From assembly GCA_028697455.1 (NCBI GenBank), contig JAQVEZ010000002.1, forward strand, positions 25,486 through 89,485: a stretch of 64,000 bases of DNA, read 5' to 3'. This stretch comes from Minisyncoccota bacterium (lineage in GTDB: Bacteria; Patescibacteriota; Minisyncoccia; Phycocordibacterales; UBA1006). The notes beneath the pieces were generated by a model. That model was not told the DNA's origin. It made no database searches and saw only the letters and a program-made list of their open reading frames with translations. The translations under genes were made by a program, and so were the position numbers. Positions 47,455 through 63,102 of this stretch are shown piece by piece; the stretch's first letter is position 1, and each line of letters starts with the position of its first letter.

Positions 47455-48036
47455 TTATTTTCTCTTTGAGATAATAGCATCAACAATTCCATACTTCTTT
47501 GCTTGTTGTGCATCGAGCCAAAAGTCCCTATCCATATCCTTTTCAATCTGTTCTTTCTTTTGTCCTGTTGCCGAAACAAGCATATCAGTAAGGATTTTTT
47601 TTGTTTTTAAAATCTGTTCAGCGGTGATAGCAATGTCTGATGCCTGTCCCTCAACACCTGTCATCGGCTGGTGAATCATTATTCGTGAATTAGGAAGAAC
47701 ATAGCGCTTTCCCTTTGCTCCTTGAGAGAGAATCATCGCCCCCATAGAAGCCGCCATTCCAATACAAACAACGGAAACGTCTGGTTTGATATAATTCATG
47801 GTATCAATCATCGCCATTCCAGCATCAACTGATCCCCCTGGTGAATTTACATAAATAGTAATGTCTTTGTTAGCATCTTCTTGTTCAAGATGAAGAAGCT
47901 GTGCCACAACACTATTTGCAAGATCGTTACTAATAACACCACTCACAAAAATAATTCTTTCTTTTAATAAACGCGAATAAATATCGTACGCACGCTCTCC
48001 TGCGTGTGTTTTTTCAATAACTGTTGGTATTAACAT
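47455..48036 (-). CDS. clpP: ATP-dependent Clp protease proteolytic subunit
   Basis: [17 protein letters not shown], catalytic region [10 protein letters not shown] (Ser), IMIHQP (His); 193 aa. Confidence 0.9.
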
Positions 48037-48092
48037 ATCTGAAGTATAAACAAAAAAAAAGCCTTTTCAAGAAAAGCTTTCTCTTTAAAAAA

Positions 48093-49145
48093 TTATTTAC
48101 AATTATCAAGAAATTCAAAAACTTTTTGGTGAGTCAGTATCTCAGTAACATAATGATGTACATTTGCTTCCTGAATCCCTGGTTGGTTTTTATATTGGTT
48201 CATGAGGTACTCAACTTCTTTCTCAACAACCTCTTGTTCGGGGGTAATTTTTTCTTTCTTTGCAATCTCTCCTAAAGCAAGTTCTGTTTTAACTCGCTCT
48301 TCGGCTTGCTCTTTCCATTCTTTTCGGTAATCTTCTCGAGTTTTTTTGATAGATTCAAGATACTCATCAAAAGCCATTCCTGTCATCGTTATATTGTGCT
48401 CAAATTCATGCATCATTTTATCAAGCTCGTGATTAAGAAAAAGTTGCGGAATTTCAAATTCAGAATCTTTTACAAGTCTTTGCATAATTTCCATTCGCCT
48501 TTTTTCGATATTTTTTGCTTCTTTTTCTTTCTCGATATTTTCTTTAATTTTTGCCTTAAGATCTGAAAGATCTTTAAATTGCCCTAAGGTTTTAACCCAT
48601 TCTTCATCAAGAGGAGGGAGGTCTTCATCTTTGATATCACTCCATGATACAGGTTCTGAGCCTTGGTCTTGGATTTTTTGTTGAGCGCTCATTTTGCGGA
48701 GATTATAAATAGCCTCATCAACTTCACGATCTTCCACCTCAAAAGAATACTCTTTGTTGTTTTCTTCTTTTGCTATTTTTTTGTAATCTCCAAGCTTAAT
48801 CTCTGGAGCGAGTGCCGTTGTAATTTTAACCTCAGCATCGGTTCCTTCTGCTATTTTGGTAATGAGAATTTCTGGGTAGCCAATTGCTTCAACGCCAGAC
48901 TCTTTGATAATGTCTTGGAAACTATGACTAATCGCATGTTGGACCATTTCTTCGAAAATAGCCGCTTTGTTGAGATGTTTTTCTGCGATATCCTTTGGAA
49001 CATGTCCTTTACGGAAACCGGGAAGATCAATATTCTTTAAAAAATCGCTCTCAATGTGCTCTCGATGTGTTTCAATTTCTTTAAGAGACAAAACAACCTC
49101 AATTTCAGCACGAGCATTTTCTTTTTTTACTGTTTTTATTTTCAT
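48093..49145 (-). CDS. tig: Trigger factor (short form)
   Basis: N-terminal ribosome-binding signature GFRKGHVP; located directly upstream of clpP as in the conserved tig-clpP arrangement; 350 aa. Confidence 0.75.
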   Translation of the reverse strand: MKIKTVKKENARAEIEVVLSLKEIETHREHIESDFLKNIDLPGFRKGHVPKDIAEKHLNKAAIFEEMVQHAISHSFQDIIKESGVEAIGYPEILITKIAEGTDAEVKITTALAPEIKLGDYKKIAKEENNKEYSFEVEDREVDEAIYNLRKMSAQQKIQDQGSEPVSWSDIKDEDLPPLDEEWVKTLGQFKDLSDLKAKIKENIEKEKEAKNIEKRRMEIMQRLVKDSEFEIPQLFLNHELDKMMHEFEHNITMTGMAFDEYLESIKKTREDYRKEWKEQAEERVKTELALGEIAKKEKITPEQEVVEKEVEYLMNQYKNQPGIQEANVHHYVTEILTHQKVFEFLDNCK

Positions 49146-49229
49146 GCCTTTTACTATAACAAAAAGCTAAATTTTGACTACTTTTTCAAACAAAAAACAG
49201 CTTTTTGCTGCTTTTGATTGATGAATAAG

Positions 49230-49781
49230 CTAGTTTCCAAACTTTTCATTATAGAGAACAATGGATTTTTCGATTGCTTTTATCGCCTCATCTTTTCCTT
49301 TGATTGAATTGATAGTAACAATATCTCCTTTTCCCTTAAGTTCTTTATAGGTTTCAAAAAAATGAGTCCATTCCTTGAGGACATGGGGATTAAGATGCTC
49401 AAGCTCAGTTACTCCTTCCCATCGCTTGTCGTTTACGGGAACGGCGATAATTTTATAATCTGATTCGCCACTATCATTCATTTCCATAACGGCAACTGGT
49501 CGAACTTTCACCAAAACCCCAACTTCAAGGGGAAAGGTTGTTGGGACAATAACATCAAGAGCATCTCCGTCCTCCCACAAAGTTTGTGGGACAAAACCAT
49601 AATCAAAAGGATAAGGACTTGCACTATAATTAACTCGATCAAGGGCAATTAACCCTGTTTCCTTATCAATCTCGTATTTATTATAAGAACCCTTAGGAAT
49701 CTCAATAATACAGTTAAACTCATGAGGAATATTTTCTCCTCGTGATATGTCATGCCATAAATTCATAGTAAGTATTTTCAA
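49230..49781 (-). CDS. ppa: Inorganic pyrophosphatase (family I)
   Basis: IIEIPKGSYNKYEID, DGDALDVIV, YKIIAV are family-I PPase motifs; an alternative start is at ATG 49766. Confidence 0.85.
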   Translation of the reverse strand: MKILTMNLWHDISRGENIPHEFNCIIEIPKGSYNKYEIDKETGLIALDRVNYSASPYPFDYGFVPQTLWEDGDALDVIVPTTFPLEVGVLVKVRPVAVMEMNDSGESDYKIIAVPVNDKRWEGVTELEHLNPHVLKEWTHFFETYKELKGKGDIVTINSIKGKDEAIKAIEKSIVLYNEKFGN

Positions 49782-49884
49782 AAAAGGTAAATAATACTTC
49801 TTAGTATAGAAAAATAGAAACTTTTTTCAAGAGATGCTCTTTATTAATGACATATTTTAAGGGATCATGTTATACTTTAAGCGT

Positions 49885-52869
49885 ATGAAAAAATTTTTTA
49901 TCTTATTTATTTTTGTTTTTTCTTTGAGTTTATTCACCCCACAGAAAACCGAAGCCCTTTTTGATGTTGGGAGCTTAATACTCGTTGCAAAAGAATACGG
50001 AATGGATACCCTCACGACTATTATCAACTCACGTATTATGGATAAACTCGTGAGTGATACGGTTAACTGGGCAAATGGTGGTTTTGACGGAGAGCCTGGC
50101 TTCATCAACAACTGGGAAGATTATCTCAAGGGGACTGAACAAGATGTCTTTATTGGAGCTTTTAGTGTTGCCGAAAAAGCCACAAGCTCTTATATACAAA
50201 ACTTCTGTAACCTTGATTGTTCCGGAAACAGCCCTGAAAATATCCAAGCTGATTATGAAGAATGTCTTGCTGGTGGTGCCCCCGTTGAAACCTGTGATGC
50301 GTATGCTAACGCAGCAAGTGCTGATTACCAGCAATGCATGGCAAATCTCGAGCAAGGAGCGGGTACTTGTCAAATGCTTGATATCGGTGCGCAGGCGCAA
50401 AGTAATTATAACGCATGGAATTCGGGAGAACTTGATTCCTATCGGCTTGCTGCAGAGAGTATTGCCCTCATCGGAGGGCAGCGATTCAACTCCGACCCAC
50501 TCAAAGCGCTTATTGAAGGACAGGGTGAAACCCTTACTAAACTCCTTGGTTCAAAATCTGAAGTAGAGAATTTTAAAAATGACTTCTCTGTTGGGGGAAT
50601 ACGGGGGTGGATTGCTCTAGCTGACCCACACAACTTTCCACTCGGACAATCAACACTTATTGAATCTGCCCTAAGTCAAAAAACAGGAGAGAAGGTTCAA
50701 AATGTTGTAGAAGATTTGCAAACACCAAATAAATTCCTCGACAGAAAATGGTGTCTCGAACGAGATGATGACAACAACTGTACAAAAGAATTTACGGGGA
50801 CTCCAGGAGCTCTTATTGAATCAAAAATAAAATCAACAGCTGATTCTGACAGCGATCGTCTTAATGTTGCCCGAGAACTTTCCGACGTTCTGGCTCGAGC
50901 GCTTGGAAAACTCACCGATGGCTTACTCCAAGCAGGCTTCAATAAGCTTACTCAATCGGGAAGTTCTGGTGCGAGTGCACAACCCTTCCAACCAGCTCAA
51001 TTTTTTACAACAGGATATCAAAATGAATTCGATATTCTTGGTTTAGGAGATCTTTCTCCTTCTGGAAGCCTTCTTGGGGGAGGAACCGGTGGGGGGAATA
51101 CTCAAACACCGATCTTTGATCCCGAGACGGGAACCTTTACACCTCTTCGTGGAGGTGATGGATCTCTTCCTTATATTGGAGGACCCGAAGATGCAGTAAA
51201 TACAAGCTGGAACGAAGGTCCTGAGATTATTATTGATCTTCAGAGTGTTCTCGAAAACTCAATTAATCTTATCCAAGAAGAGCTCACGCTCCTCACAGAG
51301 ACTGAAAAAATCCTCAGAGATGGAAAAGATAATGTGATGAAACTTGATCGTTGTATCCCTGGTCCAAAATTTGGGTGGGAAGACAGGCTTCGAGATAATC
51401 TAAATCTTACTGGAGATAGTAACGACGAAGAATCTGCTTATGACCGACTTGGGCTCCAAGAAACTCGTCGTATGGCAAATGACAATATGGTGAATATCCC
51501 TGGGGCAAGTCAAATGAGAGGAACCGTAAATGCTCTCCTCTCTCAAAATGGGGAAAATCAATTTGAAGAAGTTTCGAATGAACGAAACCGAAAACAAACC
51601 TATCTTGCAATTCTTAAAAACATGAAATCTTCAATCCAACAAGATTTTAATAACTATAAAGGAGCTATTGATTCACATCTTGTTATCTTTGAAGAGGACT
51701 GGAATAAACTCTCTGATACCGAGAAAATCGCGCTCTTCTCTATCCCCGAACGAGATGAGAATGGTGATATCATTTATGTTCCCGTTGAGGTAGGGAGCTC
51801 GGGAACTATTGTCGTTAATGAAAACCAAGAACGTCCTCTCTATATTATGGAGAAATACTATCTCTTTAAACCAGGAGAAACTCCAGCATCTGTTTTTGCA
51901 AATAATCCTGATGCCGTCAAAAAAGCCGTCTTGAGTTATTCATGGGATCTCTGGCAAAGAAAGAAGGGGGAAGAGCCAGCAAGTGGAACAACCCCAAATG
52001 GAGTAACCCAAAAATCAAACCTTCGCTATCAATATTATGCCATGTCAAAATATCTCACCACAGAGTCTGATATCCTTGATGCAGAAATGAAAAAAGATGA
52101 AGTGACTCAGAGCAATAAAACCATTATTGATCTTCTTCATGACTGTATGCAGCTAAAATTATATGCACTTGGATATTCTGATGGGAATGGTGAAAATACA
52201 GAAATGTGGAAACGCCTAGACCAGACCTTGTCCCAGGAACCTTCACGATCTCTTGGAATGCTTATTGGAGGAATGAGTGTTGAGAGGGCTGATCATGGAA
52301 GTACTGCTTACCAACTCAATGTGGACAATGCTCGTACCGATCAGCAAATAAAAAATTATCTGCTCCAAGAAAAAGCCAAACAAGAAAACAACCAACCAAG
52401 TAATTTTAAGACTTCAATAATTACTAATGGTGTTGAAGAAAGTATTCTTGGTTTTGAAGAAACAACTATTAGCTGGGAGGAAGTAGCTCATTACGGACCA
52501 CCAGGGCACAACCCCTACGGATCTCCTGATGGTGACGGAAATATAACCTTGAGTCCGAGCCAAACAAGAAAAAAATACTTTGATGATTTTTATGAAAAAG
52601 ATGAAGATCTCTGGCAACCCTATTATAAATATTCAAATGGTATTGCAGAGATAGACCCAGAAAGAGCTGTTGCAAGACTCTATCAGTTCGATTATATGAC
52701 AATGGGATGGCCACGAGGGGGAAATGGGAAAGGAACACTCTATTGTAGAGTAGTGACCTCATTCGATGCACGGGGATGGCATGGAGCTCAAAATCTCCCA
52801 AAATGCTACAAAGATTGGTACAGTACGTCAAATATTACCTATGACCTTGCGTTGATGAATATTCGATAA
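49885..52869 (+). CDS. Large secreted Cys-containing protein, hypothetical; first gene of the surface/T4SS-like gene block
   Basis: Signal peptide MKKFFILFIFVFSLSLFTPQKTEA; start at ATG 49885 with a TATACT box 8 nt upstream; about 995 aa; followed by terminator AAGCCttcgGGCTTTTTT. Confidence 0.55.
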   Translation: MKKFFILFIFVFSLSLFTPQKTEALFDVGSLILVAKEYGMDTLTTIINSRIMDKLVSDTVNWANGGFDGEPGFINNWEDYLKGTEQDVFIGAFSVAEKATSSYIQNFCNLDCSGNSPENIQADYEECLAGGAPVETCDAYANAASADYQQCMANLEQGAGTCQMLDIGAQAQSNYNAWNSGELDSYRLAAESIALIGGQRFNSDPLKALIEGQGETLTKLLGSKSEVENFKNDFSVGGIRGWIALADPHNFPLGQSTLIESALSQKTGEKVQNVVEDLQTPNKFLDRKWCLERDDDNNCTKEFTGTPGALIESKIKSTADSDSDRLNVARELSDVLARALGKLTDGLLQAGFNKLTQSGSSGASAQPFQPAQFFTTGYQNEFDILGLGDLSPSGSLLGGGTGGGNTQTPIFDPETGTFTPLRGGDGSLPYIGGPEDAVNTSWNEGPEIIIDLQSVLENSINLIQEELTLLTETEKILRDGKDNVMKLDRCIPGPKFGWEDRLRDNLNLTGDSNDEESAYDRLGLQETRRMANDNMVNIPGASQMRGTVNALLSQNGENQFEEVSNERNRKQTYLAILKNMKSSIQQDFNNYKGAIDSHLVIFEEDWNKLSDTEKIALFSIPERDENGDIIYVPVEVGSSGTIVVNENQERPLYIMEKYYLFKPGETPASVFANNPDAVKKAVLSYSWDLWQRKKGEEPASGTTPNGVTQKSNLRYQYYAMSKYLTTESDILDAEMKKDEVTQSNKTIIDLLHDCMQLKLYALGYSDGNGENTEMWKRLDQTLSQEPSRSLGMLIGGMSVERADHGSTAYQLNVDNARTDQQIKNYLLQEKAKQENNQPSNFKTSIITNGVEESILGFEETTISWEEVAHYGPPGHNPYGSPDGDGNITLSPSQTRKKYFDDFYEKDEDLWQPYYKYSNGIAEIDPERAVARLYQFDYMTMGWPRGGNGKGTLYCRVVTSFDARGWHGAQNLPKCYKDWYSTSNITYDLALMNIR

Positions 52870-52930
52870 AAGCCTTCGGGCTTTTTTCTTTTACAGAAAA
52901 GAAAAATACGATATGATTAAAGGTAGTTAT

Positions 52931-55357
52931 ATGAAATCTTTTTTAAGAAAATTCTTTCTTGGGCTTATTGTTGCACAGGCTCTTTTTCTTACTCCTTTTT
53001 CTGTTGAATTAAAAGTAAATATTCCAAAAACAGAAAATTCTCTTTTTGCTGTTCAGGAAGAAAAAAGCTCACAATCTCTTGTTGAAATATCTCCCGTATT
53101 ACATACAGCAAATGCACTTTACGGTGGTGGCTGTGATGGGGGCAGCCCCACAACATGGGGGGAATGTATTCTTTCGGGGATACTTACTTTCTATCATTAT
53201 CTGTTCTTTACAACTACTCAGATTCTCGCTGCTATTGCCGCCTATTTTATGGACGTAATTATCAAATTCTCAATCAGCAGTAGTTTTTATCGAGGAATTG
53301 GAATTATCGAAGTTGGTTGGGAGATCTTACGAGACCTTTCAAATATCATCTTTCTCTTTGCCCTTCTCTATATTGCCTTTCGTTTTGCGATTAATGGGAT
53401 AAAAGATGGTCAAGCAAAAAAGAGTCTCATCAATGTTATTGTTGCAGCCCTCGTTGTCAACTTTAGTCTTTTTATTTGTTATTTCCTCATTGACGCATCG
53501 AATCTCTTTGCGCATGTATTTTATAACAGAATAACAACCGAAGCCTCTATATACCCAACTAATAATGGAGCGGGGCAAGAAGGATTAGCGACGGTTCTTA
53601 ATGATATTAAATCCCCAGCGACAGCCTTTCTTGCAGCTATCAACCCGCAACGACTTCTCTTAACAGATGCTGATATCGCAACTAACGGAGGGATGATCAA
53701 AATCCTTTCTATGATCATGGGGATGGCAATTGTTAATGGTATTGCGATTTGGGTATTTTTGTCGGTTGCACTTCTTTTCTTAACGAGAATTTTGGGGCTT
53801 ATTATTCTCTCGTTTTTATCTCCTCTCGCTTTTTCGAGTCTCGCCATCCCAGAGATGAAGAAACAAAAATACGTTGGATTTGATGATTGGTTAAATAATT
53901 TTCTGAGAATGTCTTTTGCTGCGCCAATTTTTACCTTCTTTTTATGGGTAGCAACAAAATTTGCAAGTAATGAAGGGGTGATAGGAACAATCCAAAGAAA
54001 CTCCGGCGGGGATTGGATTTTGGATATGCTCAATGTCTTTCTGGTAATGGCGCTCATTGCAGGAATACTCGTTATGAGCAAGAAAATAACACAAGACCTT
54101 GCAGGAAACTTCTCAAAACAAATCACCGGAATGATCGGAAAAGCTGTTGCAGGAACAGCAGCTGTCGGGGCGCTTGCTGTTGCAGCTCCTGTGGCAGGGG
54201 TAGGAATGCTGGCACGTGCAGGAGCTGGAGTAACCTCTGCAACGGGGGGCCTTGCAAGGGGTGCACGAGCTCTCAACATGACTGGAGCTGCTGATAGATT
54301 ACAAAAAGCACAGGAGAAATTAAAGAGCAATAGATTTGGAACAACGGCAGCAAATGCTGGGAGGGCTCTTATGTCGACAAAACTCAATGTCACCAAAATT
54401 CCTGGCTTCAGCCAGCTTGCGGGAAAAGAGCTCACCAGCATCGTCGGTAAAGTACCTGGGGTTGGGGTTTCTGCGCGGGAGCTTGAACGAAAGGCTGTTC
54501 TTTATGGAATGAGAAATGTTCCTCTCTATAGAGACAAGGAAGGCAAGTGGAAACGTAACTTCCTTACAGGAAGACAACATCAAGAAGCTGAGCTCGCTTA
54601 CGATAAAGAAAAAGAGAAGATCCGAGGAGAACGTGGAAAATGGCAAGAAGATCTCAAAAAAGAACGAGATAAATTTGAACAAGAAAAGGTTGTCAATGCA
54701 ATGCGCGATAAGGTTAGACGAGATACAAAACTCGATCCAGAGCGAAAAGCAGAACGAGATGCTCACAATGCTGTTCTTGAAAACTCAGACCTTGTCAAAA
54801 AAGAAACCGAAGCGATGGATGCTCTCAAGGGAGAATTGGCAAACCTTACTGCTCAACTTAATGCAGCCAAAGGTTCTGGAAATGATAATCTAGCAGATAC
54901 TATTCAAATGGAGATCGATGGGGTGAAAGTTAGAAGAGCTGCTCGAGAAAAAGGAATTGAGCTTTCTGGTGGAAATGCAGAAAACATGATTACTGATAAG
55001 GTTAATGGGGGTATGAGTCGAAAAGAAGCCGTTAAGGCAATTATAGAAGAGAACAAGGATGGTTTCGGAACAACTACTACTTATCATGCTAACGGTGGAG
55101 TTGATGTGACAGCGGAGACACTCCAGGGAAGACATCAACACGAGAAAAACCTTCTTAATGAAGAAGAAAGAAATCTTATTAGGGCAGAAATTACAAATCT
55201 CAGAACTCAGGCTACCGCAGCAAGGACCGCCGGAAGAGATGATGAGGCAGATACGCTCAACAAAAAGGCTTCTCATCTTTCACAAAAAATGGAAAGTATG
55301 CTTACCGATTCTTCAAAGATTGATGAAGCAGCAAATAAAGCATCGAACAAAAAATAA
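52931..55357 (+). CDS. VirB6/TrbL/ConG-like polytopic membrane protein with a long Ala/Gly-rich coiled-coil C-terminal domain
   Basis: Signal/TM1 then about 7 further TM helices in the first 380 aa (for example ILAAIAAYFMDVII, LINVIVAALVVNFSLFICYFLI, MIKILSMIMGMAIVNGIAIWVFLSVALLFL), followed by a roughly 430-aa hydrophilic coiled-coil region. The size (about 810 aa) and topology match Gram-positive VirB6 homologues such as ConG and TcpH. Confidence 0.5.
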   Translation: MKSFLRKFFLGLIVAQALFLTPFSVELKVNIPKTENSLFAVQEEKSSQSLVEISPVLHTANALYGGGCDGGSPTTWGECILSGILTFYHYLFFTTTQILAAIAAYFMDVIIKFSISSSFYRGIGIIEVGWEILRDLSNIIFLFALLYIAFRFAINGIKDGQAKKSLINVIVAALVVNFSLFICYFLIDASNLFAHVFYNRITTEASIYPTNNGAGQEGLATVLNDIKSPATAFLAAINPQRLLLTDADIATNGGMIKILSMIMGMAIVNGIAIWVFLSVALLFLTRILGLIILSFLSPLAFSSLAIPEMKKQKYVGFDDWLNNFLRMSFAAPIFTFFLWVATKFASNEGVIGTIQRNSGGDWILDMLNVFLVMALIAGILVMSKKITQDLAGNFSKQITGMIGKAVAGTAAVGALAVAAPVAGVGMLARAGAGVTSATGGLARGARALNMTGAADRLQKAQEKLKSNRFGTTAANAGRALMSTKLNVTKIPGFSQLAGKELTSIVGKVPGVGVSARELERKAVLYGMRNVPLYRDKEGKWKRNFLTGRQHQEAELAYDKEKEKIRGERGKWQEDLKKERDKFEQEKVVNAMRDKVRRDTKLDPERKAERDAHNAVLENSDLVKKETEAMDALKGELANLTAQLNAAKGSGNDNLADTIQMEIDGVKVRRAAREKGIELSGGNAENMITDKVNGGMSRKEAVKAIIEENKDGFGTTTTYHANGGVDVTAETLQGRHQHEKNLLNEEERNLIRAEITNLRTQATAARTAGRDDEADTLNKKASHLSQKMESMLTDSSKIDEAANKASNKK

Positions 55358-55408
55358 AAAACCTTCGCGGTTTTTTATTTTTAAAAAATTGCTATACTAA
55401 AACAAGTT

Positions 55409-56260
55409 ATGGAATACGACCGATCAGAAATCGAAAAAATCATTTCCGAACTTCCCAATCATATCCGACAGGCCGTTGATGCTATTGACTGGGGAGAGAT
55501 CACCAAAGAAATGCAAGAAAAGTTCAAACTCCATCTTGATGATATTGCTGCCTTTCGTGAACAATCAATGCTTGTCATTGTGGGAAAGCTTTCTTCAGAC
55601 AGATATGCAGATGCCCTTATCTATGAAATTGGTCTAAGCAAAGAGTTCGCTCATGAACTTGTTGATTTTGCAGACAAAAGAATCTTTCAGAAATTACAAA
55701 ACAATGCCTTCGGGAGAAACCAAGAACCAGAAGAAAAAATCCCTGCGTATACCTCACAATCAACAAACGATCCTTATTCAATTATTGATATCAATGATCA
55801 AAATGAGGGGAAAAATATGCCGAGCTTTTCTCCTTCTTTTAATGCAAACCTCAAAAAAGACTTAGCTGATCAGCTTTCTTCATGGCAAGTGCAAAGTGGA
55901 AAAGAAGATATTCTTAGCTCTAATAGCGGTACCGCAGGCTCATTCAAACTTGCTCCAAGGGAAAAACCTGCTGACCCAAATGCCTATCGAGAACCTATCG
56001 AAGAATCTGACCTTCGTGGAATTCCTTCTATGGACTCCCTTGAACGGTCTTCTCTCGGTCAGGCATTACAACAGCCTGAGCAGATTTTTTCATCCCCTCT
56101 TGAAGCCCAGGAAAAACGTGAAGATGTTCCAAACCTTGAAGAAGATTTACTTTCTCAAGCCTTCATTCCTAAAAATGATATCTTAAACCTTGATGATGAA
56201 AACGATATCCTTTCAGAAGAAAATGAGGGAAGTCACCTTAAAAACCTAAAGAATATATAA
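55409..56260 (+). CDS. Acidic hypothetical protein
   Basis: 283 aa, strongly acidic C-terminal half; TATACT box immediately upstream. Confidence 0.4.
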   Translation: MEYDRSEIEKIISELPNHIRQAVDAIDWGEITKEMQEKFKLHLDDIAAFREQSMLVIVGKLSSDRYADALIYEIGLSKEFAHELVDFADKRIFQKLQNNAFGRNQEPEEKIPAYTSQSTNDPYSIIDINDQNEGKNMPSFSPSFNANLKKDLADQLSSWQVQSGKEDILSSNSGTAGSFKLAPREKPADPNAYREPIEESDLRGIPSMDSLERSSLGQALQQPEQIFSSPLEAQEKREDVPNLEEDLLSQAFIPKNDILNLDDENDILSEENEGSHLKNLKNI

Positions 56261-56268
56261 TTACCCTT

Positions 56269-56691
56269 ATGAGATTCGAAGTTCCACAATTTATTAATGT
56301 TCAAGATAAACTTTTTGGACCTTTTACCTTCCAAGAAGCTCTTTATCTTGTCGGTGGAGGAGGACTTGTCTTTGTTCTTTATAAACTCCTTCCTTTTTCT
56401 TTTGCGATATTTTTTGGTGTTCCTGTTATTGCTTTTACGCTAGCGCTCATCTTTTATAAACCAAATGGGAGACCGTTTATCAATCTTGTTGAGGCTTTTA
56501 TTCTCTATTCTTTTAGTAAAAAATTCTACCTTTGGAGACAAAAAGAAAAAGGAGAAGGTCAGATACAGGAAATCACTCAAGTACATGCTCCCGTCCTCCG
56601 TGAGGGAGAAATTCCTGAAGAAGAGGTTCACCAAAAGATATCAAACCTTGCTTGGAGTCTCGATGTGCTTGATTTTGATGAAAATAAATAG
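56269..56691 (+). CDS. PrgI/VirB3-like small two-TM membrane protein
   Basis: 140 aa; N-terminal MRFEVPQFINVQDKLFGPFTFQEALYLVGGGGLVFVLYKLLP and a second TM segment IFFGVPVIAFTLALIFY. The architecture matches the PrgI family found directly upstream of VirB4 in Gram-positive T4SS. Confidence 0.45.
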   Translation: MRFEVPQFINVQDKLFGPFTFQEALYLVGGGGLVFVLYKLLPFSFAIFFGVPVIAFTLALIFYKPNGRPFINLVEAFILYSFSKKFYLWRQKEKGEGQIQEITQVHAPVLREGEIPEEEVHQKISNLAWSLDVLDFDENK

Positions 56692-56727
56692 ATATTCCTC
56701 AAAAGATAGGATATACTTTATATAATT

Positions 56728-57390
56728 ATGGCGGACACAAAAACTTACACGGGAAATAGAACTCAGGATTTTGTTCCTATCAAAGAAATACGTGATGGTA
56801 TTGTTGTTCTTGAGGACGGAACCCTTCGTGCAATTCTTATGGCTTCGGCGGTTAATATTGCACTCAAGTCAATCGAAGAGCAGCAAGCAACGATTATGCA
56901 GTTTCAAGGATTTCTTAATTCTATCGAATTCCCGGTGCAGATATCAGTACAGTCTAGACGACAAGATATCAAACCCTATCTCATGACGCTCGAAAGACGT
57001 GTACAACAACAAGAAGAAGAGCTTTTGCGCTTACAAACAAAAGAATATATTGAATTCATACGATGGTTTACTGACTCTGTTAATATTATGTCAAAGAAAT
57101 TTTATGTTGTTATTCCTTATTCTGGAGGGCTTCTCAATGCTCAAACAACACAAAAAAAAGGTTTCTTCTCAACACTCTTTGGTGGGCAGAACAAAAAACA
57201 ACAAGAACTTGGTTCTTCTGCCTTTGAAGAGCAGCGAAGTCAGCTTGAACAAAGAGTTGCTATTGTAAAATCAGGTCTTTCTCGTTTTGGGGTACGTTCT
57301 GAACAGCTCAATACTGAACAGGCAATTGAGGTATATTATAATATTTTTAACCCTGGAGATTCTCACAGGAATATTCCCCAGCTTATCTAA
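56728..57390 (+). CDS. VirB4/TraE-family N-terminal-domain-only protein (no ATPase domain)
   Basis: DFVPIKEIRDGIVVLEDGTLRAIL...SAVNIALKSIEEQQATIMQFQGFL...PVQISVQSRRQDIKPYLMTLERRV...FYVVIPYS resembles, from recalled patterns, the conserved N-terminal module of Gram-positive VirB4 proteins (PrgJ/TcpF/ConE-type). The ORF stops after 220 aa with no Walker motifs. Confidence 0.4.
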   Translation: MADTKTYTGNRTQDFVPIKEIRDGIVVLEDGTLRAILMASAVNIALKSIEEQQATIMQFQGFLNSIEFPVQISVQSRRQDIKPYLMTLERRVQQQEEELLRLQTKEYIEFIRWFTDSVNIMSKKFYVVIPYSGGLLNAQTTQKKGFFSTLFGGQNKKQQELGSSAFEEQRSQLEQRVAIVKSGLSRFGVRSEQLNTEQAIEVYYNIFNPGDSHRNIPQLI

Positions 57391-57449
57391 ACTCGTCTTT
57401 GAGTTTTTTTGATTATGAGCAATTCCAAAAATACCTTATAATAACAAAG

Positions 57450-58493
57450 ATGATAGAACGAAAAAAAATTACATATTTTTTTCTCTTTTTTGTTCTTGTG
57501 GGAGGTTTTTTTGTTCTCTCGGAAAAAGTATCTGCACAAACTGAGGCACAGATCCAACAACTTCAAAACTTCCAACTCTATTCCGCTGATGATATTTTCA
57601 TTGATATTGTTCCAGAAGTTCCTGGTCCCAACCAAGAAGTAACTCTCCGAGCAAATAGCTATAGTTTTAACCTTAATAATTATTACATTAGTTGGTTCAA
57701 AGATGGGGTTCGCCAAAATGCAGGGTTTGGACAACGAGAGTATAAATTTACAACAGGAGAAATCGGAAAGGTCACTACAGTGGTGGCAGCTGTTGAGTTT
57801 GAGGGACAGGTTTTTCGAAAAGAAATGCGTTTTGCCCCTTCAGAGGTAAATCTTTTGTGGGAGGTTATCAACGGGTACGCCCCTCCTTTTTATAAAGGAA
57901 AGGTTCTCCCTCTCCCACAATCTGAGGTACGCGTCACTGCTATTCCACAAACCTTTCTTATCAAACCTTCAGATGCACGAAACCTTATTTATTATTGGGA
58001 TCAAAATTATGAAAGAAAAGTTGCTTCATCCGGTTTTGGGAAACAATCATTTCAATTTACGGCTGGGGTTCTTTCTCAAATGGAAAAAATTTCAGTAACC
58101 GCCAATGACAGGAGAGAGGCTTCTTTTGCAAAAGAAACCCTTGATATCCCCGTAAGTTCCTTTACTCCAAAAATTCTTTTCTATGAAATTGATGAAAACG
58201 GGCGAATCCTTACCAATAAAGCTCTCAATACCAACACACAAATCTCAGGAGATACCCTCAAGCTAGCCTTTCATCCTCTTTTTATGTCAACACCAAAGAA
58301 AAACTTTACTGATCTTTTTGTTGACTGGTCTATTAATGATATCCATCAAGCTCCTCAAAATTTCAACAAACAAAACGAGCTCTATATTAGCTCTGGTGGA
58401 GAATCTGGTGCCGTCCAGATAGGAATAAATCTCGAAGGAATTAGTAAGCTCCTTCAGAAAGGTTCTCAAAAAATTGAATTACACTTTCAATAA
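57450..58493 (+). CDS. Secreted hypothetical protein
   Basis: Signal peptide MIERKKITYFFLFFVLVGGFFVLSEKVSA; about 347 aa; terminator AAAACCAAAtactTTTGGTTTTTT follows. Confidence 0.45.
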   Translation: MIERKKITYFFLFFVLVGGFFVLSEKVSAQTEAQIQQLQNFQLYSADDIFIDIVPEVPGPNQEVTLRANSYSFNLNNYYISWFKDGVRQNAGFGQREYKFTTGEIGKVTTVVAAVEFEGQVFRKEMRFAPSEVNLLWEVINGYAPPFYKGKVLPLPQSEVRVTAIPQTFLIKPSDARNLIYYWDQNYERKVASSGFGKQSFQFTAGVLSQMEKISVTANDRREASFAKETLDIPVSSFTPKILFYEIDENGRILTNKALNTNTQISGDTLKLAFHPLFMSTPKKNFTDLFVDWSINDIHQAPQNFNKQNELYISSGGESGAVQIGINLEGISKLLQKGSQKIELHFQ

Positions 58494-58540
58494 GAACAAA
58501 ATCTCAAAAAACCAAATACTTTTGGTTTTTTATTCACCAA

Positions 58541-60134
58541 AATATCGTATACTAGAAATATTACTACTATGAAAAAAGCCTATTTAACACTTTCTTTGGC
58601 AGTTATTCTTTTGGGAGGATTTTTAATGAACCCTTCTTGGGGAGAAGCACAAAATCAATGCACTGTTTCAAGTGCTACTTTTACCCAACCTGAAGATAAT
58701 TCTTTTGATAAAAAGAAGTCTACTTTAAATATCAAAACTAACGGTTGTGAATATACAAACCTTTCTGTGGTATTAAAATATTTTGCATCAGATGATTATA
58801 TATGGACCCATCAAATAAAAAACCTTCCAGGGATTTTAAAGGTTGCAAGTGATGGGGATCTCACTCTTGAAATAACTCTGGGAGAAGACCCCTGTTGGTC
58901 TGCAAACAAGGACCCTTATGGATTTCCTTGCGTTACTTTTATTGAGGTATATCAAGGAGGGAATCTCAAATTTAGTGGAAACGAAACCTACGGAAGTGAA
59001 TTTATTACCAAAGAAAAAGTAAAACTTGGTAAAAACGATCCAAATGTTCTTAAGGATTATCGTAATAAAGGTGTCCTTATTGGAGAATGTTCAAGTACTC
59101 TCTTTTGTAAAGAAGGAAGCAGCAATGTTTGGGAGTTAAGTAAGTTACTCAAAGGAACTTCACAGCAAACACAAAGCTGTATCATCAATCCCAATGATAT
59201 CCAATATGGAGAGCTTCCTTTTGAAAAAGACAGCAACGGAAACTCTTTCCCCACTATCACAAACGCCAATCTTACTCTCAATATCAATACTACAAACTGT
59301 AAGGGATTACCTATCACTCTAAGTATTTATGGTACTGAGGGGAAGGTTGATATCAAGGTCCCAGAAAAAGGCGCCGTAACTGAAATTACCAAAACTGCTG
59401 TAGGAGACGAGCTCAAATTTTCTTTCAAAACCCATGACGAAGAATGTTCTATACAAAAAAATCCTCATTGTCAGTTTGGGACAACAATCACCCAAAACGG
59501 AACTCCCATTGTAAGTACTCAAAACCTTTTAGAAACTATTGTGCCTGGAGTAGCAATTGATTGGAATTACTATCGAAACAATGGAGTCATTTTTGCTTAC
59601 TGTTCCTCAGGTCTTGGTGGTGTCTATTACTGTGAGCGTCTTGGGGCAAATGATTGGACACTTCTCAAGGTTTCAGGAAGTGCAGGGGAAGATACGCCCG
59701 AAGTATTTGAAACGATTACCCCAAAATTCGACCCCGAAAGCCCTTGTTTTGTCCAAGAGCTCAATGGGGGAAATGGGGGATATGATGAAGATTGTTACGA
59801 ACTCCTTGCTCCTGTTCCAGGATTAAAAGGAGCTACTGATCCTCTAGGAAATAATCGCTGGAGTATTAATCTTAAGAATTTTCAAATAGGAGACTATGTT
59901 AATTCACTCTTTTCTATTGCCTTAGGAATTCTAACGCTTCTTGCGGTGATTATGATTGTGATTGCTGGGGTACAGTATATGACCATTGAAAGTTTCCAGG
60001 GTAAATCTGATGCCAAAAGTAGAATTACTGGTGCTCTGACAGGGCTTCTTCTTGCCTTGAGTATTTATATTATTTTGGGAACCATTAACCCCGATCTTCT
60101 TCAGGTAAACTTTGGAAGTAACATTGAGGAGGTG
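58541..60134. repeat. 1594-bp perfect direct repeat (partner copy 60811..62404) covering the promoter, 5' UTR and first 1566 nt of the two hydrolase genes
   Basis: Both copies begin with aatatcgtatactagaaatattactactATGaaaaaagcc and are identical by eye up to ...acattgaggaggtg. They then diverge (aagttggagggg vs gcattagaggga). Confidence 0.9.
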
Positions 60135-60788
60135 AAGTTGGAGGGGATGCAACTATCACCAGAGCAATTGGCTGCGTATGGAAACGATTATAATACCGCA
60201 ATGCAACAAGGAACAGAGATTCCTCCTGATAATCAAATGTTCCAAGATGAAGGGTTTATTGCATATCTCTATCACCAACAAGGAGAAGGCGGTGCTCCTT
60301 CTATTATCTATTCCGCACAACAAGGATGGAGTAAAATTGAAAAAACTCCTTGGGCATCAAACAAATTAAAAGCTGCTGACGTCAACAAAAATATGAATAA
60401 CAACTGGCCAAGCGGCGTCAACCGAGGAAACGGGTCTCCTTCAGACTTTCTCAGGGTTTGGTGGGTGGTATGGAACCAAAGAAAGACAGAAATAAGTCTC
60501 ATACCAAAAAATGTTGCAAACATTGTTACCCAAGTTGCAAATGAAGAAAAGATTGAAGTGAACCGATTCAAAACAGTGTGTATGATAGAATCGAGTTGTA
60601 ATAATCCAAGCATCAAAAACGACCAAGGGTACAAAGGCCTTTTCCAGTTTAGTGATGACACCTTTGCTTCTCAGAAAAAACCTGGCTGTGATAGTATTTT
60701 TGATGCCTATTGTAATAGTTATGCGGGAGCACGTTATATGAAATATAATCTTTCTCGCTGGAATAAGCATAAAGCTAAGATCTTTTGA
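58569..60788 (+). CDS. Secreted membrane-anchored cell-wall hydrolase, variant 1: shared 520-aa N-terminal module plus C-terminal SLT lytic transglycosylase domain
   Basis: Signal peptide; Cys-containing N-terminal domain; hydrophobic helical hairpin LFSIALGILTLLAVIMIVIAGVQYM...ITGALTGLLLALSIYIILG; C-terminal CMIESSCNNPSIKNDQGYKGLFQFSDDTFAS carries the E-S...GLxQ lytic transglycosylase signature. Confidence 0.6.
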   Translation: MKKAYLTLSLAVILLGGFLMNPSWGEAQNQCTVSSATFTQPEDNSFDKKKSTLNIKTNGCEYTNLSVVLKYFASDDYIWTHQIKNLPGILKVASDGDLTLEITLGEDPCWSANKDPYGFPCVTFIEVYQGGNLKFSGNETYGSEFITKEKVKLGKNDPNVLKDYRNKGVLIGECSSTLFCKEGSSNVWELSKLLKGTSQQTQSCIINPNDIQYGELPFEKDSNGNSFPTITNANLTLNINTTNCKGLPITLSIYGTEGKVDIKVPEKGAVTEITKTAVGDELKFSFKTHDEECSIQKNPHCQFGTTITQNGTPIVSTQNLLETIVPGVAIDWNYYRNNGVIFAYCSSGLGGVYYCERLGANDWTLLKVSGSAGEDTPEVFETITPKFDPESPCFVQELNGGNGGYDEDCYELLAPVPGLKGATDPLGNNRWSINLKNFQIGDYVNSLFSIALGILTLLAVIMIVIAGVQYMTIESFQGKSDAKSRITGALTGLLLALSIYIILGTINPDLLQVNFGSNIEEVKLEGMQLSPEQLAAYGNDYNTAMQQGTEIPPDNQMFQDEGFIAYLYHQQGEGGAPSIIYSAQQGWSKIEKTPWASNKLKAADVNKNMNNNWPSGVNRGNGSPSDFLRVWWVVWNQRKTEISLIPKNVANIVTQVANEEKIEVNRFKTVCMIESSCNNPSIKNDQGYKGLFQFSDDTFASQKKPGCDSIFDAYCNSYAGARYMKYNLSRWNKHKAKIF

Positions 60789-60838
60789 TCTTGGTTTTTT
60801 TATTTTAAAGAATATCGTATACTAGAAATATTACTACT

Positions 60839-63076
60839 ATGAAAAAAGCCTATTTAACACTTTCTTTGGCAGTTATTCTTTTGGGAGGATTTTTAATGAA
60901 CCCTTCTTGGGGAGAAGCACAAAATCAATGCACTGTTTCAAGTGCTACTTTTACCCAACCTGAAGATAATTCTTTTGATAAAAAGAAGTCTACTTTAAAT
61001 ATCAAAACTAACGGTTGTGAATATACAAACCTTTCTGTGGTATTAAAATATTTTGCATCAGATGATTATATATGGACCCATCAAATAAAAAACCTTCCAG
61101 GGATTTTAAAGGTTGCAAGTGATGGGGATCTCACTCTTGAAATAACTCTGGGAGAAGACCCCTGTTGGTCTGCAAACAAGGACCCTTATGGATTTCCTTG
61201 CGTTACTTTTATTGAGGTATATCAAGGAGGGAATCTCAAATTTAGTGGAAACGAAACCTACGGAAGTGAATTTATTACCAAAGAAAAAGTAAAACTTGGT
61301 AAAAACGATCCAAATGTTCTTAAGGATTATCGTAATAAAGGTGTCCTTATTGGAGAATGTTCAAGTACTCTCTTTTGTAAAGAAGGAAGCAGCAATGTTT
61401 GGGAGTTAAGTAAGTTACTCAAAGGAACTTCACAGCAAACACAAAGCTGTATCATCAATCCCAATGATATCCAATATGGAGAGCTTCCTTTTGAAAAAGA
61501 CAGCAACGGAAACTCTTTCCCCACTATCACAAACGCCAATCTTACTCTCAATATCAATACTACAAACTGTAAGGGATTACCTATCACTCTAAGTATTTAT
61601 GGTACTGAGGGGAAGGTTGATATCAAGGTCCCAGAAAAAGGCGCCGTAACTGAAATTACCAAAACTGCTGTAGGAGACGAGCTCAAATTTTCTTTCAAAA
61701 CCCATGACGAAGAATGTTCTATACAAAAAAATCCTCATTGTCAGTTTGGGACAACAATCACCCAAAACGGAACTCCCATTGTAAGTACTCAAAACCTTTT
61801 AGAAACTATTGTGCCTGGAGTAGCAATTGATTGGAATTACTATCGAAACAATGGAGTCATTTTTGCTTACTGTTCCTCAGGTCTTGGTGGTGTCTATTAC
61901 TGTGAGCGTCTTGGGGCAAATGATTGGACACTTCTCAAGGTTTCAGGAAGTGCAGGGGAAGATACGCCCGAAGTATTTGAAACGATTACCCCAAAATTCG
62001 ACCCCGAAAGCCCTTGTTTTGTCCAAGAGCTCAATGGGGGAAATGGGGGATATGATGAAGATTGTTACGAACTCCTTGCTCCTGTTCCAGGATTAAAAGG
62101 AGCTACTGATCCTCTAGGAAATAATCGCTGGAGTATTAATCTTAAGAATTTTCAAATAGGAGACTATGTTAATTCACTCTTTTCTATTGCCTTAGGAATT
62201 CTAACGCTTCTTGCGGTGATTATGATTGTGATTGCTGGGGTACAGTATATGACCATTGAAAGTTTCCAGGGTAAATCTGATGCCAAAAGTAGAATTACTG
62301 GTGCTCTGACAGGGCTTCTTCTTGCCTTGAGTATTTATATTATTTTGGGAACCATTAACCCCGATCTTCTTCAGGTAAACTTTGGAAGTAACATTGAGGA
62401 GGTGGCATTAGAGGGATATGACCCCCCAACATCTCCTTATTTTTCAAGCGGCTCAACGGGGTCAAATTACAACATAAATGCAGGGTCAGTACCAACAGGA
62501 AGTGCGAGTCAGTATTTAGCAAATTCAGGGGTATACTGTCCAAAACAAGGAGGGAGGACGGTCGTAAAACAGGTTGCTGAAAGTTTCCAGGAAAAAGTTA
62601 GCTATCGCTATGGAGGACGGTTCAATGATTTAGGGCAATCTTTTCCGAGTCACTGGAAGGGTTCTGGAAAAGGATATAATAAAAACACATCATGTCAGGT
62701 AAGCTCTGGGACTCTTTGCTTAGATTGTTCGGCTTTTGTCGCCACTGTTCTCTATTGTTCTGGAATAACAGAAAAACCAGAGATTGGAACAACTACTCAA
62801 ATTTTTCAGAATTCTGAAAAAATAAACCAACTTGATAAAAAAAATGGGGTTGTTAATGGAGTACCTCTTCAGCCAGGAGACCTTATAGGAGGAAAAGGTC
62901 ATGTTGGTATTTATATAGGAAATGGAATGGTAGCAGAATCAACAAGCGATAAGGGGGGTCGGAACCTAAACAAAGCAATCAAAATTCGAGGAATGGATGG
63001 AAATTGGTTTGGTATAGGGAAAAAAGGTGGTTATGTTGTACGACTAAATAAGCTATCTGGGGTTAAACTTAATTAA
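60839..63076 (+). CDS. Secreted membrane-anchored cell-wall hydrolase, variant 2: identical N-terminal module plus C-terminal NlpC/P60-type peptidase domain
   Basis: First 522 residues identical to 58569..60788; C-terminal SSGTLCLDCSAFVATVLYCSG...LQPGDLIGGKGHVGIYIGNGMVAES has the catalytic Cys and His arrangement of NlpC/P60. Confidence 0.6.
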   Translation: MKKAYLTLSLAVILLGGFLMNPSWGEAQNQCTVSSATFTQPEDNSFDKKKSTLNIKTNGCEYTNLSVVLKYFASDDYIWTHQIKNLPGILKVASDGDLTLEITLGEDPCWSANKDPYGFPCVTFIEVYQGGNLKFSGNETYGSEFITKEKVKLGKNDPNVLKDYRNKGVLIGECSSTLFCKEGSSNVWELSKLLKGTSQQTQSCIINPNDIQYGELPFEKDSNGNSFPTITNANLTLNINTTNCKGLPITLSIYGTEGKVDIKVPEKGAVTEITKTAVGDELKFSFKTHDEECSIQKNPHCQFGTTITQNGTPIVSTQNLLETIVPGVAIDWNYYRNNGVIFAYCSSGLGGVYYCERLGANDWTLLKVSGSAGEDTPEVFETITPKFDPESPCFVQELNGGNGGYDEDCYELLAPVPGLKGATDPLGNNRWSINLKNFQIGDYVNSLFSIALGILTLLAVIMIVIAGVQYMTIESFQGKSDAKSRITGALTGLLLALSIYIILGTINPDLLQVNFGSNIEEVALEGYDPPTSPYFSSGSTGSNYNINAGSVPTGSASQYLANSGVYCPKQGGRTVVKQVAESFQEKVSYRYGGRFNDLGQSFPSHWKGSGKGYNKNTSCQVSSGTLCLDCSAFVATVLYCSGITEKPEIGTTTQIFQNSEKINQLDKKNGVVNGVPLQPGDLIGGKGHVGIYIGNGMVAESTSDKGGRNLNKAIKIRGMDGNWFGIGKKGGYVVRLNKLSGVKLN

Positions 63077-63077
63077 A

Positions 63078-63102
63078 AACAACCTTAAGGTTGTTTTTTG
63101 TT
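63078..63102 (+). terminator. Rho-independent terminator after the NlpC/P60 variant gene
   Basis: AAACAACCttaaGGTTGTTTTTTG. Confidence 0.6.

Follow-up and report, generated by a model that had tools for sequence, protein, structure and literature searches.

Type IV secretion systems (T4SSs) with a TrsD homologue, PrgI, VirB6-like and VirB2-like proteins, no relaxase and a position close to dnaA are already published for Patescibacteria (Wang 2023; Quinonero-Coronel 2025). Among T4SS components of Patescibacteria, the TrsD homologue ranks first in abundance, with 2,272 homologues in 2,221 assemblies, of which 1,664 are near virB4 and 608 are not (PMC12102498). Also reported from the same bacteria are homologues of PrgI, VirB6, VirB2-like proteins and VirB1, a lack of relaxase and a location close to dnaA (PMC12102498). 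The Patescibacteria T4SS is biologically important: in the one species tested, Southlakia epibionticum, epibiotic growth requires T4SS genes, that of the TrsD homologue among them (PMC10633639, PMC12102498). In the Trs/Tra systems of the Staphylococcus plasmids pGO1/pSK41, the gene order is VirB3-like TrsC, then TrsD (227 aa, a remote homologue of the VirB4 N-terminus), then the DUF87 VirB4 ATPase (TrsE).

Here we describe a related locus from an ultrasmall, Paceibacteria-like member of the Patescibacteria. "The window" denotes the whole 64,000-nt stretch of DNA that was analyzed. A first-pass annotation had described the interval 52931-57390 as a Gram-positive-type T4SS module in which VirB4 was reduced to its N-terminal domain and the motor was missing. 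Our analysis supports a module of this type, with a cluster related to monoderm MPF_FATA conjugation systems. The interval very probably lies within the 5′ two-thirds of a chromosomal type IV secretion-like cluster of Patescibacteria, in which VirB4 is encoded by two genes and the ATPase gene stands just past the end of the window.

Organization of the cluster

All cluster genes are on the + strand, in the order and at the positions of the first-pass annotation. The first encodes a 1000-aa secreted protein with a signal peptide (49867..52869), which has no match in Pfam or NCBIfam; in 17 of the listed loci that are more distant, tblastn found a homologue (22-35% identity) in the corresponding place upstream.

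The next gene, at the VirB6 position (52913..55357, alternative start 52931), encodes an 814-aa membrane protein with about seven hydrophobic segments between residues 100 and 440, giving a polytopic N-terminal half followed by a long, charged, coiled-coil-like C-terminal tail. The first-pass annotation called it VirB6/TrbL/ConG-like; the window protein itself matches no VirB6/TrbL model in Pfam or NCBIfam, including PF04610. Of 31 relatives, 13 have matches in membrane-protein families of monoderm ICEs. By family, NF045848 (the conjugal transfer protein MMCAP2_0566) is matched by 13 of the 31, with a best E of 1.3e-9, NF045889 (Mbov_0396 ICE transmembrane protein) by 8, CD3337/EF1877 by 2 and TrbL by 1 (E 0.037). 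An hhalign comparison with pSK41 TraL (TrbL family) gave E 9e-4 at a probability of 23% over the invariant R292...P304...W326 block. The single-sequence AF2 model was unusable (pLDDT 49.9). From this remote similarity, which is seen at the level of the family only, we infer that the protein is probably VirB6-like.

An acidic 283-aa protein follows (55409..56260); its conservation in related clusters is weak and limited to the first ~100 residues. After a gap of 8 nt comes the gene for a 140-aa protein with two transmembrane helices (56269..56691), whose earlier assignment as PrgI/VirB3-like was borne out by PF12666 (28.2 bits against a gathering score of 27; E 2.7e-6). PrgI homologues were found by tblastn in most related loci (82 + strand ORFs recovered), and in nearly all of those loci the gene is directly upstream of the TrsD-like gene, which in the window is the 220-aa ORF at 56728..57390.

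Another gap of 8 nt separates the 220-aa gene from the unrelated ORF of a conserved 347/364-aa membrane-anchored extracytoplasmic protein (57399..58493, likely start 57450). With 26-63% identity to the window protein, it is present by tblastn in most related loci (73 entries, in a few of which no ORF could be recovered), after the ATPase gene or, in the closest clade, after the TrsD-like gene. Its family profile has no match in PDB or NCBIfam.

Two paralogues with peptidoglycan hydrolase domains come next. The 739-aa protein (58569..60788) has a secreted Cys-rich N-domain, a VirB2-like pilin hairpin at residues 441-506 (NF045849, Mbov_0395 pilin-like, E 9.5e-6) and a C-terminal SLT lytic transglycosylase domain (28.7 bits, gathering score 21.3). 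The 745-aa paralogue (60839..63076) has the same N-domain and pilin hairpin and ends in an NlpC/P60 peptidase domain (26 bits, gathering score 23). In both, T4SS_pilin PF18895 scores 25.7 bits, just under its gathering score of 26.6. The DNA of the two genes is 100% identical over a stretch that begins ~30 nt before the ATG and extends to about codon 522; the remainder is unrelated. This shared 1.6-kb front half may be of minor specialist interest. The last gene, for a membrane-anchored peptidoglycan (PG)-binding protein (PG_binding_1, E 1.7e-4), begins at 63169 and is cut at 64000 by the window end, which leaves 277 codons of its 5′ part.

Profile searches (Pfam, NCBIfam) matched VirD4 or relaxase in no cluster ORF, neither was found in the 64-kb window, and a tblastn search of the window with the VirD4 and relaxase of pSK41 as queries returned noise only. 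The cell-wall hydrolases around the module and the lack of relaxase and VirD4 nearby are thus as first annotated. The claim that each gene has its own promoter and terminator did not hold: promoter-like sites occur no more often than by chance (30 against an expected 32.6), + strand terminator-like hairpins follow three genes only (52868-52885, 60771-60798 and 63075-63098), and two of the intergenic gaps are 8 nt long.

The 220-aa protein is a conserved stand-alone module

The resemblance of the 220-aa protein to the VirB4 N-terminus was confirmed by three NCBIfam profiles. The best match was VirB4_plasma (Mbov_0397 VirB4; positions 100-233 of 894, E 4e-11), followed by TrsD/TraD NF041427 (positions 16-142 of 201, E 3.2e-6) and CD1110-type VirB4 NF045971 (positions 2-118 of 752, E 2.3e-5). 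The NF041427 match of 27.1 bits falls far below the curated cutoff of 200 bits, and a direct hhalign profile comparison with pSK41 TrsD was weak (E 0.0094, probability 4%). No P-loop family in Pfam or NCBIfam matched the protein, and Walker A/B motifs were not found. It therefore shares homology with one part of VirB4 without being a VirB4 ATPase, and it is a remote relative and functional counterpart of TrsD rather than a strict member of NF041427.

For a protein identical to the 220-aa protein, PF26593 (TraC-like) is recorded. A search recovered 4573 homologues, the best 120 of which are all 210-261 aa long and carry PF26593; at 50% clustering the family has 3353 representatives, with 148 of the best 150 no longer than 443 aa. 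Members of ~220 aa number in the thousands in Patescibacteria. The listed homologues from other species share 57-78% identity with the window protein, and 66 columns are invariant in a 23-sequence alignment; the protein is under strong purifying selection.

These results show that the protein is a full-length, conserved, stand-alone member of a TrsD/"TraC-like" family and not a truncated remnant of VirB4, as the first-pass annotation had proposed. In favour of an artefact, a full-length virB4 broken by a sequencing error or frameshift, there is nothing beyond the similarity to the VirB4 N-terminus. An independent Logan contig also encodes this 220-aa protein, the length of ~220 aa is kept in thousands of homologues, the stop codon is conserved in 77/77 related loci, the next ORF, 8 nt past the stop, is unrelated, and no ATPase-like sequence exists in any frame within the window. 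An artefact of this kind, and with it a continuation of 56728-57390 into an ATPase domain, is refuted by these observations and retains practically no probability.

VirB4 is split into two genes in related loci

We compared 83 related loci, of which 78 have enough downstream sequence to be informative. A separate VirB4 ATPase gene is present in 78/78 of these. An ATPase ORF of ~600-620 aa lies directly 3′ of the 220-aa gene in 72 of the 83 loci, further downstream in 5 and rearranged to the other side in 1 (L017); in each of the 5 loci without an ATPase, the contig extends less than 4.3 kb downstream. The two genes are unfused in 77/77 loci, and the 220-aa ORF and the ATPase ORF occur in any relative frame (32/28/17 among the 77). 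The split is therefore not a frameshift.

The two proteins are complementary parts of VirB4. On NF045971, where the 220-aa protein covers positions 2-118, the related-locus ATPase covers 183-732 and passes the cutoff (372 bits against 325). Fusing the 220-aa protein and the ATPase in silico raised every VirB4 score and gave a product colinear with full-length VirB4, which matched TIGR00929 VirB4_CagE in one stretch (positions 6-724 of 792). Rare natural fusions of 797 and 898 aa (P0345 and P0392) carry the 220-aa domain at the N-terminus of a full VirB4. VirB4 in this lineage thus consists of two genes, one for the 220-aa module and one for a P-loop ATPase of ~615 aa.

Within the 64-kb window, profile and tblastn searches detected no VirB4 ATPase anywhere, so the earlier observation of a missing motor stands for the window; as a statement about the system it does not, since the window ends inside the cluster and the ATPase gene is present in every informative relative. 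We consider it very improbable that the source genome truly lacks the VirB4 ATPase, through decay of the system or because this is an ATPase-less surface machine. The absence of VirB4, VirD4 and relaxase signals from the window would fit such a reading, but the cluster genes are all intact and are retained at 82-100% identity in near-identical strains, which is not a picture of decay, and the ATPase family is more strongly conserved (74-94% identity) than the TrsD-like family. There is likewise only a slim chance that an envelope machine of TrsD-like, PrgI, VirB6-like and pilin-hydrolase proteins works without the T4SS signature ATPase or borrows another motor.

Predicted position of the ATPase gene

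In the closest clade, which includes loci L002 and L013-L015 with 68-77% identity in the 220-aa protein, the ATPase gene is ~5 kb downstream of the TrsD-like gene. All six complete loci (L002, L013, L014, L015, L093 and L094) share the order PrgI, TrsD-like protein, ~340-aa protein, pilin/hydrolase, PG-binding protein (~550 aa) and ATPase, the last directly after the PG-binding gene in 6/6. Beyond these clusters come jag-yidC-rnpA-rpmH and, in L002, whose flank extends far enough, dnaA. More widely, L002-L004 continue into jag-yidC-rnpA-rpmH and dnaA, and L093-L095 into jag-yidC-rnpA, with flanks that stop short of dnaA. The window does not contain dnaA.

Gene for gene, the window agrees with the closest clade up to the cut PG-binding gene. 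By tblastn, L002, L013, L014 and L015 each have a PG-binding homologue (38-53% identity) immediately before the ATPase gene; these ORFs are 548-553 aa long, with the ATPase start 62-90 nt further on. Because the window ends 830 bases into the PG-binding gene, the ATPase gene of the source genome is predicted just past this gene, starting ~0.9 kb beyond 64000 and occupying roughly 64.9-66.8 kb. The near-identical public contigs (L001, L005-L011) all break within the duplicated pilin/hydrolase genes, a 41-mer from the window end had no match in the genome collection, and no close relative turned up when the truncated PG-binding ORF was used as a protein query.

We judge it unlikely that the ATPase gene has moved elsewhere in the source genome, so that a distant locus provides the motor in trans. 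Gene order does vary between clades: the ATPase gene adjoins the TrsD-like gene in 72 loci, stands 5 kb downstream of it in the closest clade and is inverted in L017. TrsD homologues away from virB4 are known from the published survey. Against this, in all six complete loci of the closest clade the ATPase gene immediately follows the PG-binding gene, and the window keeps to their order up to its end. We therefore retain a location just past the window as the preferred prediction. Separately, we note that the cluster is rearranged in L017, so gene order is not absolutely fixed.

Proposed function

By analogy with the R388 VirB4 N-terminal domain and VirB3, the two-helix PrgI/VirB3 protein and the TrsD-like module may together tether a VirB4 hexamer to the membrane. 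The 814-aa polytopic protein would form a VirB6-like membrane channel, and the two pilin-hairpin/hydrolase paralogues and the PG-binding protein could open and bind peptidoglycan in a VirB1-like role. Since neither a relaxase nor a coupling protein is encoded in the cluster, the most likely role of the machine is in interaction with the host, through export of proteins or some other envelope function needed for epibiotic growth, and not in conjugation. A repurposed surface machine, one of the options raised at first pass, matches the published picture for Patescibacteria.

Comparison with known systems

The locus adds nothing new in kind: the apparently motorless VirB4 N-domain is the TrsD-like component, already known, of a two-gene VirB4. 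Short VirB4-N-like ORFs in Patescibacteria genomes should accordingly not be taken as pseudogenes, and cluster-level claims require sequence past a window edge. The move of virB4 to the cluster end in one Paceibacteria clade and the rare natural TrsD-VirB4 fusions may be of minor specialist interest.

The closest described system is the Patescibacteria-clade T4SS (Southlakia epibionticum SEML1_0006-0019, Wang et al. 2023; survey, Quinonero-Coronel et al. 2025). Of the features used to recognize it (PMC12102498), those found here are a TrsD homologue with an adjacent PrgI/VirB3, VirB2-like pilin domains, VirB1-like peptidoglycan hydrolases and no relaxase or coupling protein in the cluster. Both also have a polytopic VirB6-like protein and are chromosomal and conserved, with rnpA-rpmH-dnaA adjacent in relatives. 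They differ in that virB4 stands at the far end of the cluster in the Paceibacteria-like clade, not adjoining the TrsD-like gene, that the pilin-like hairpin is inside large hydrolase proteins and not in small tandem pilins, and that the window itself is without virB4.

With pSK41 the locus shares the synteny of VirB3-like protein, TrsD and ATPase, as PrgI followed by the TrsD-like gene in the window and as the full trio in the 72 related loci. In contrast to that plasmid, which carries a relaxase, VirD4 and TopB, the cluster here is chromosomal and has none of these nearby. The Mycoplasma ICE (Mbov_0395 pilin-like, Mbov_0396 transmembrane and Mbov_0397 VirB4 proteins; MMCAP2_0565/0566) is similar through the profile matches of the 220-aa protein, the pilin hairpins and the relatives of the 814-aa protein, all of which are under the curated cutoffs; its VirB4 is a single protein of ~890 aa, and those ICEs are mobile and conjugative. 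Finally, the model of the 220-aa protein (moderate pLDDT, 65) matches the fold of R388 TrwK/VirB4 in the inner-membrane complex with TrwM/VirB3 (PDB 7O41-7O43, 8RTB, 8RTD) at TM-scores of 0.33-0.47 and 12-16% identity, but in R388 the ATPase polypeptide itself contains the domain, within a diderm system that has an outer-membrane core complex.

Gene content of the T4SS-like cluster

Reading of the ORFs recovered all those listed in the first-pass annotation, with their sizes and order. Nine plus-strand ORFs extend from 49.8 kb up to the window end. The first encodes a secreted protein of 1000 aa (49867-52869) and the second a polytopic membrane protein of 814 aa whose tail is charged (52913-55357; the previously given start, 52931, is Met7 of this ORF). 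An acidic 283-aa protein (55409-56260) comes next, then a two-TM protein of 140 aa (56269-56691) that matches Pfam PrgI at 28.2 bits against a threshold of 27, and a soluble 220-aa protein that we refer to as TrsD-like (56728-57390). The gene for a 364-aa protein (57399-58493) begins 8 nt past the 220-aa gene. It is followed by two paralogues of 739 aa (58569-60788; pilin hairpin and SLT domain) and 745 aa (60839-63076; pilin hairpin and NlpC/P60 domain), and by an ORF with a PG_binding_1 domain (63169 onward) that is cut by the window end. The absence of a relaxase or VirD4 near the module, noted previously, extends to the whole 64-kb window, in which a VirB4 ATPase is likewise undetectable.

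Each gene had also been proposed to carry its own promoter and terminator. Promoter-like sites occur at chance level, and plus-strand terminator-like hairpins follow only three genes, which does not bear this out. With several genes spaced by 8 nt, the central part of the cluster resembles an operon. We note that cumulative GC skew reaches its minimum at ~48000-50000 and rises afterwards, coinciding with the switch from minus- to plus-strand genes at the cluster start; dnaA in relatives lies a few kb past the far end of the cluster.

The TrsD-like protein is a stand-alone VirB4 module

Matches of the 220-aa protein to VirB4 models are confined to the N-terminal parts of monoderm models, covering positions 100-233 of 894 in Mbov_0397 (E 4e-11) and 2-118 of 752 in CD1110 (E 2.3e-5). 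The TrsD/TraD model also matches (E 3.2e-6), direct profile comparison with TrsD of the staphylococcal conjugative plasmid pSK41 is marginal, and family profile searches found no P-loop family in the protein. The protein has 4573 homologues, and the top 120 range from 210 to 261 aa, every one of them with PF26593 'TraC-like'. Within this top set, the homologues of other species share 57-78% identity with the window protein and derive from Patescibacteria/Paceibacteria MAGs. An alignment of 23 sequences contains 66 invariant columns. Searching 1.84 billion cluster representatives with a profile yielded 3353 members, and 148 of the best 150 are no longer than 443 aa. The two that exceed this length, database proteins P0345 (898 aa) and P0392 (797 aa), are each a full VirB4 whose N-terminus is the TrsD-like domain. 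Based on the number of homologues, their conserved short length and these two fusions, the sequence comparisons indicate that the 220-aa protein is a genuine VirB4 N-terminal module, usually a stand-alone gene in this lineage. The earlier description of a VirB4 N-terminal homologue without an ATPase domain thus stands as regards similarity and the missing P-loop, but the protein is not a truncated remnant, as its family is stand-alone and conserved. Natural fusions such as P0345 and P0392 are rare and could reveal whether the ancestral state was split or fused.

A separate gene encodes the ATPase in related loci

We surveyed 83 related loci for the ATPase. A separate ORF of ~600-620 aa lies directly behind the 220-aa gene in 72 and farther downstream in 5; one cluster (L017) is rearranged and partly inverted. 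In the remaining five loci, which show no ATPase ORF, the contig ends less than 4.3 kb past the 220-aa gene. The partner ORF is annotated at source as a VirB4 component and passes the curated CD1110 VirB4 model NF045971 (372 bits vs 325, profile positions 183-732); in L013 its Walker A motif is of the GAGKS type. Joined in silico, the two proteins of locus L013 gave one continuous TIGR00929 VirB4_CagE alignment (positions 6-724 of 792), and every VirB4 score was higher for the joined product. Origin of the 220-aa ORF by frameshift or truncation is excluded by the ORF reading and because the TrsD-like and ATPase ORFs occur in all three relative frames, with no fusion in the 77 loci examined.

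In the clade closest to the window, the 220-aa protein of L002 and L013-L015 is 68-77% identical to that of the window. The six complete loci of this clade (L002, L013, L014, L015, L093, L094) share the order PrgI, TrsD-like, ~340-aa protein, pilin/hydrolase, PG-binding protein, ATPase. The closest-clade PG-binding protein is 548-553 aa long, and jag-yidC-rnpA-rpmH follows the cluster, then dnaA where the flank extends far enough. The window has the closest-clade order, but with the pilin/hydrolase gene duplicated, and it stops 830 bases into the PG-binding gene, homologues of which (38-53% identity) lie immediately 5′ of the ATPase. From this shared order and end point, we predict the ATPase of the window genome at ~64.9-66.8 kb. 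The earlier reading of a missing motor is unsupported, since the window ends inside the cluster and related loci encode the ATPase separately.

Exact and 97-99% identical contigs (L001, L005-L011), from public short-read assemblies, all end inside the duplicated pilin/hydrolase genes. No database record holds the exact 745-aa product, a 41-mer from the window end had no match in the genome contig collection, and the cut last ORF as protein query returned nothing above 61% identity, its best matches being partial in query coverage. The database protein P0143, a candidate for this ATPase, belongs to another species, though its gene order is the same.

Displacement of virB4 to the cluster end, ~5 kb downstream, was seen in one Paceibacteria clade that includes the window's lineage (the same six loci), in contrast to L003 and L021-L091, where virB4 directly follows the TrsD-like gene. 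L014 (JBLIKX010000014.1) carries a Patescibacteria-type cluster, yet the contig is assigned to a Crocinitomicaceae (Bacteroidota) MAG, probably by a binning error.

Other proteins of the cluster and window

Each pilin/hydrolase paralogue has a VirB2-like pilin hairpin, which scores 25.7 bits on PF18895, slightly below the gathering score. Their DNA is 100% identical over ~1.6 kb (58540-60180 vs 60810-62450), from ~30 nt 5′ of the ATG to ~codon 522, a stretch coding for the secreted Cys-rich domain and the hairpin; past it the genes diverge completely into SLT and NlpC/P60 hydrolase domains. Short-read contigs assembled independently from close relatives all end within the duplicated gene, which suggests that the repeat is real; gene conversion possibly keeps the front halves identical. 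In related species the gene is single-copy and carries either of the two hydrolase domains.

The VirB6/TrbL-like assignment of the 814-aa protein fared less clearly. The protein itself has no direct family match in profile searches; among 31 relatives searched, 13 matched the MMCAP2_0566 conjugal-transfer family, 8 the Mbov_0396 ICE membrane family, 2 CD3337/EF1877 and 1 TrbL. The family profile aligned weakly with pSK41 TraL (TrbL family) over an invariant R...P...W block (E 9e-4, probability 23%) and gave only coiled-coil noise against PDB sequences. A single-sequence structure model (pLDDT 49.9) was too poor for structure search. A VirB6 label is thus plausible at the level of remote family resemblance.

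The product of 57399-58493 (347/364 aa) is of a membrane-anchored, ~330-aa type that nearly every related cluster conserves; the family alignment has 15 invariant residues, among them P, W, G and Y. The family profile has no match among PDB sequences or NCBIfam models, and the protein may be a missing T4SS component, e.g., a VirB8 analogue.

Elsewhere in the window, a 488-aa protein (15967-17433, minus strand) combines FG-GAP repeats with a Por_Secre_tail domain (T9SS C-terminal sorting; E 5e-9), unexpected in a monoderm Patescibacteria genome. The minus strand also encodes two more very large envelope proteins: one (32162-35653, 1163 aa) carries two PG_binding_1 domains plus one CarboxypepD_reg domain, and the other (25968-28562, 864 aa) has no family match.

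Comparison with known systems

Overall, the gene layout, PrgI and the VirB4 N-terminal homology of the first-pass annotation held, and the absent motor and gene-by-gene transcription signals did not. From the observed homology and synteny we infer a mechanism in which PrgI/VirB3 and the TrsD-like module would tether a VirB4 hexamer to the membrane, as TrwM (VirB3) and the N-domain of TrwK (VirB4) do in R388. The 814-aa protein may form a VirB6-like channel, and peptidoglycan remodelling may fall to the pilin-hairpin hydrolases and the PG-binding protein. Conjugative DNA is probably not the substrate.

The pSK41 reference order is TrsC, TrsD, DUF87 ATPase. Southlakia epibionticum has an apparent T4SS with pilins, without coupling protein or relaxase, that is essential for epibiotic growth (Wang et al. 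2023, PMC10633639), and its TrsD homologue is essential (PMC12102498). A survey of Patescibacteria (Quinonero-Coronel et al. 2025, PMC12102498) described a distinct VirB4 clade related to MPF_FATA, homologues of PrgI/VirB3, VirB6, VirB2-like and VirB1 proteins, few relaxases and a site near dnaA, findings repeated in a 2025 review (PMC12857230). As its components and context match this published T4SS, the locus is an ordinary example of an already known Patescibacteria system.
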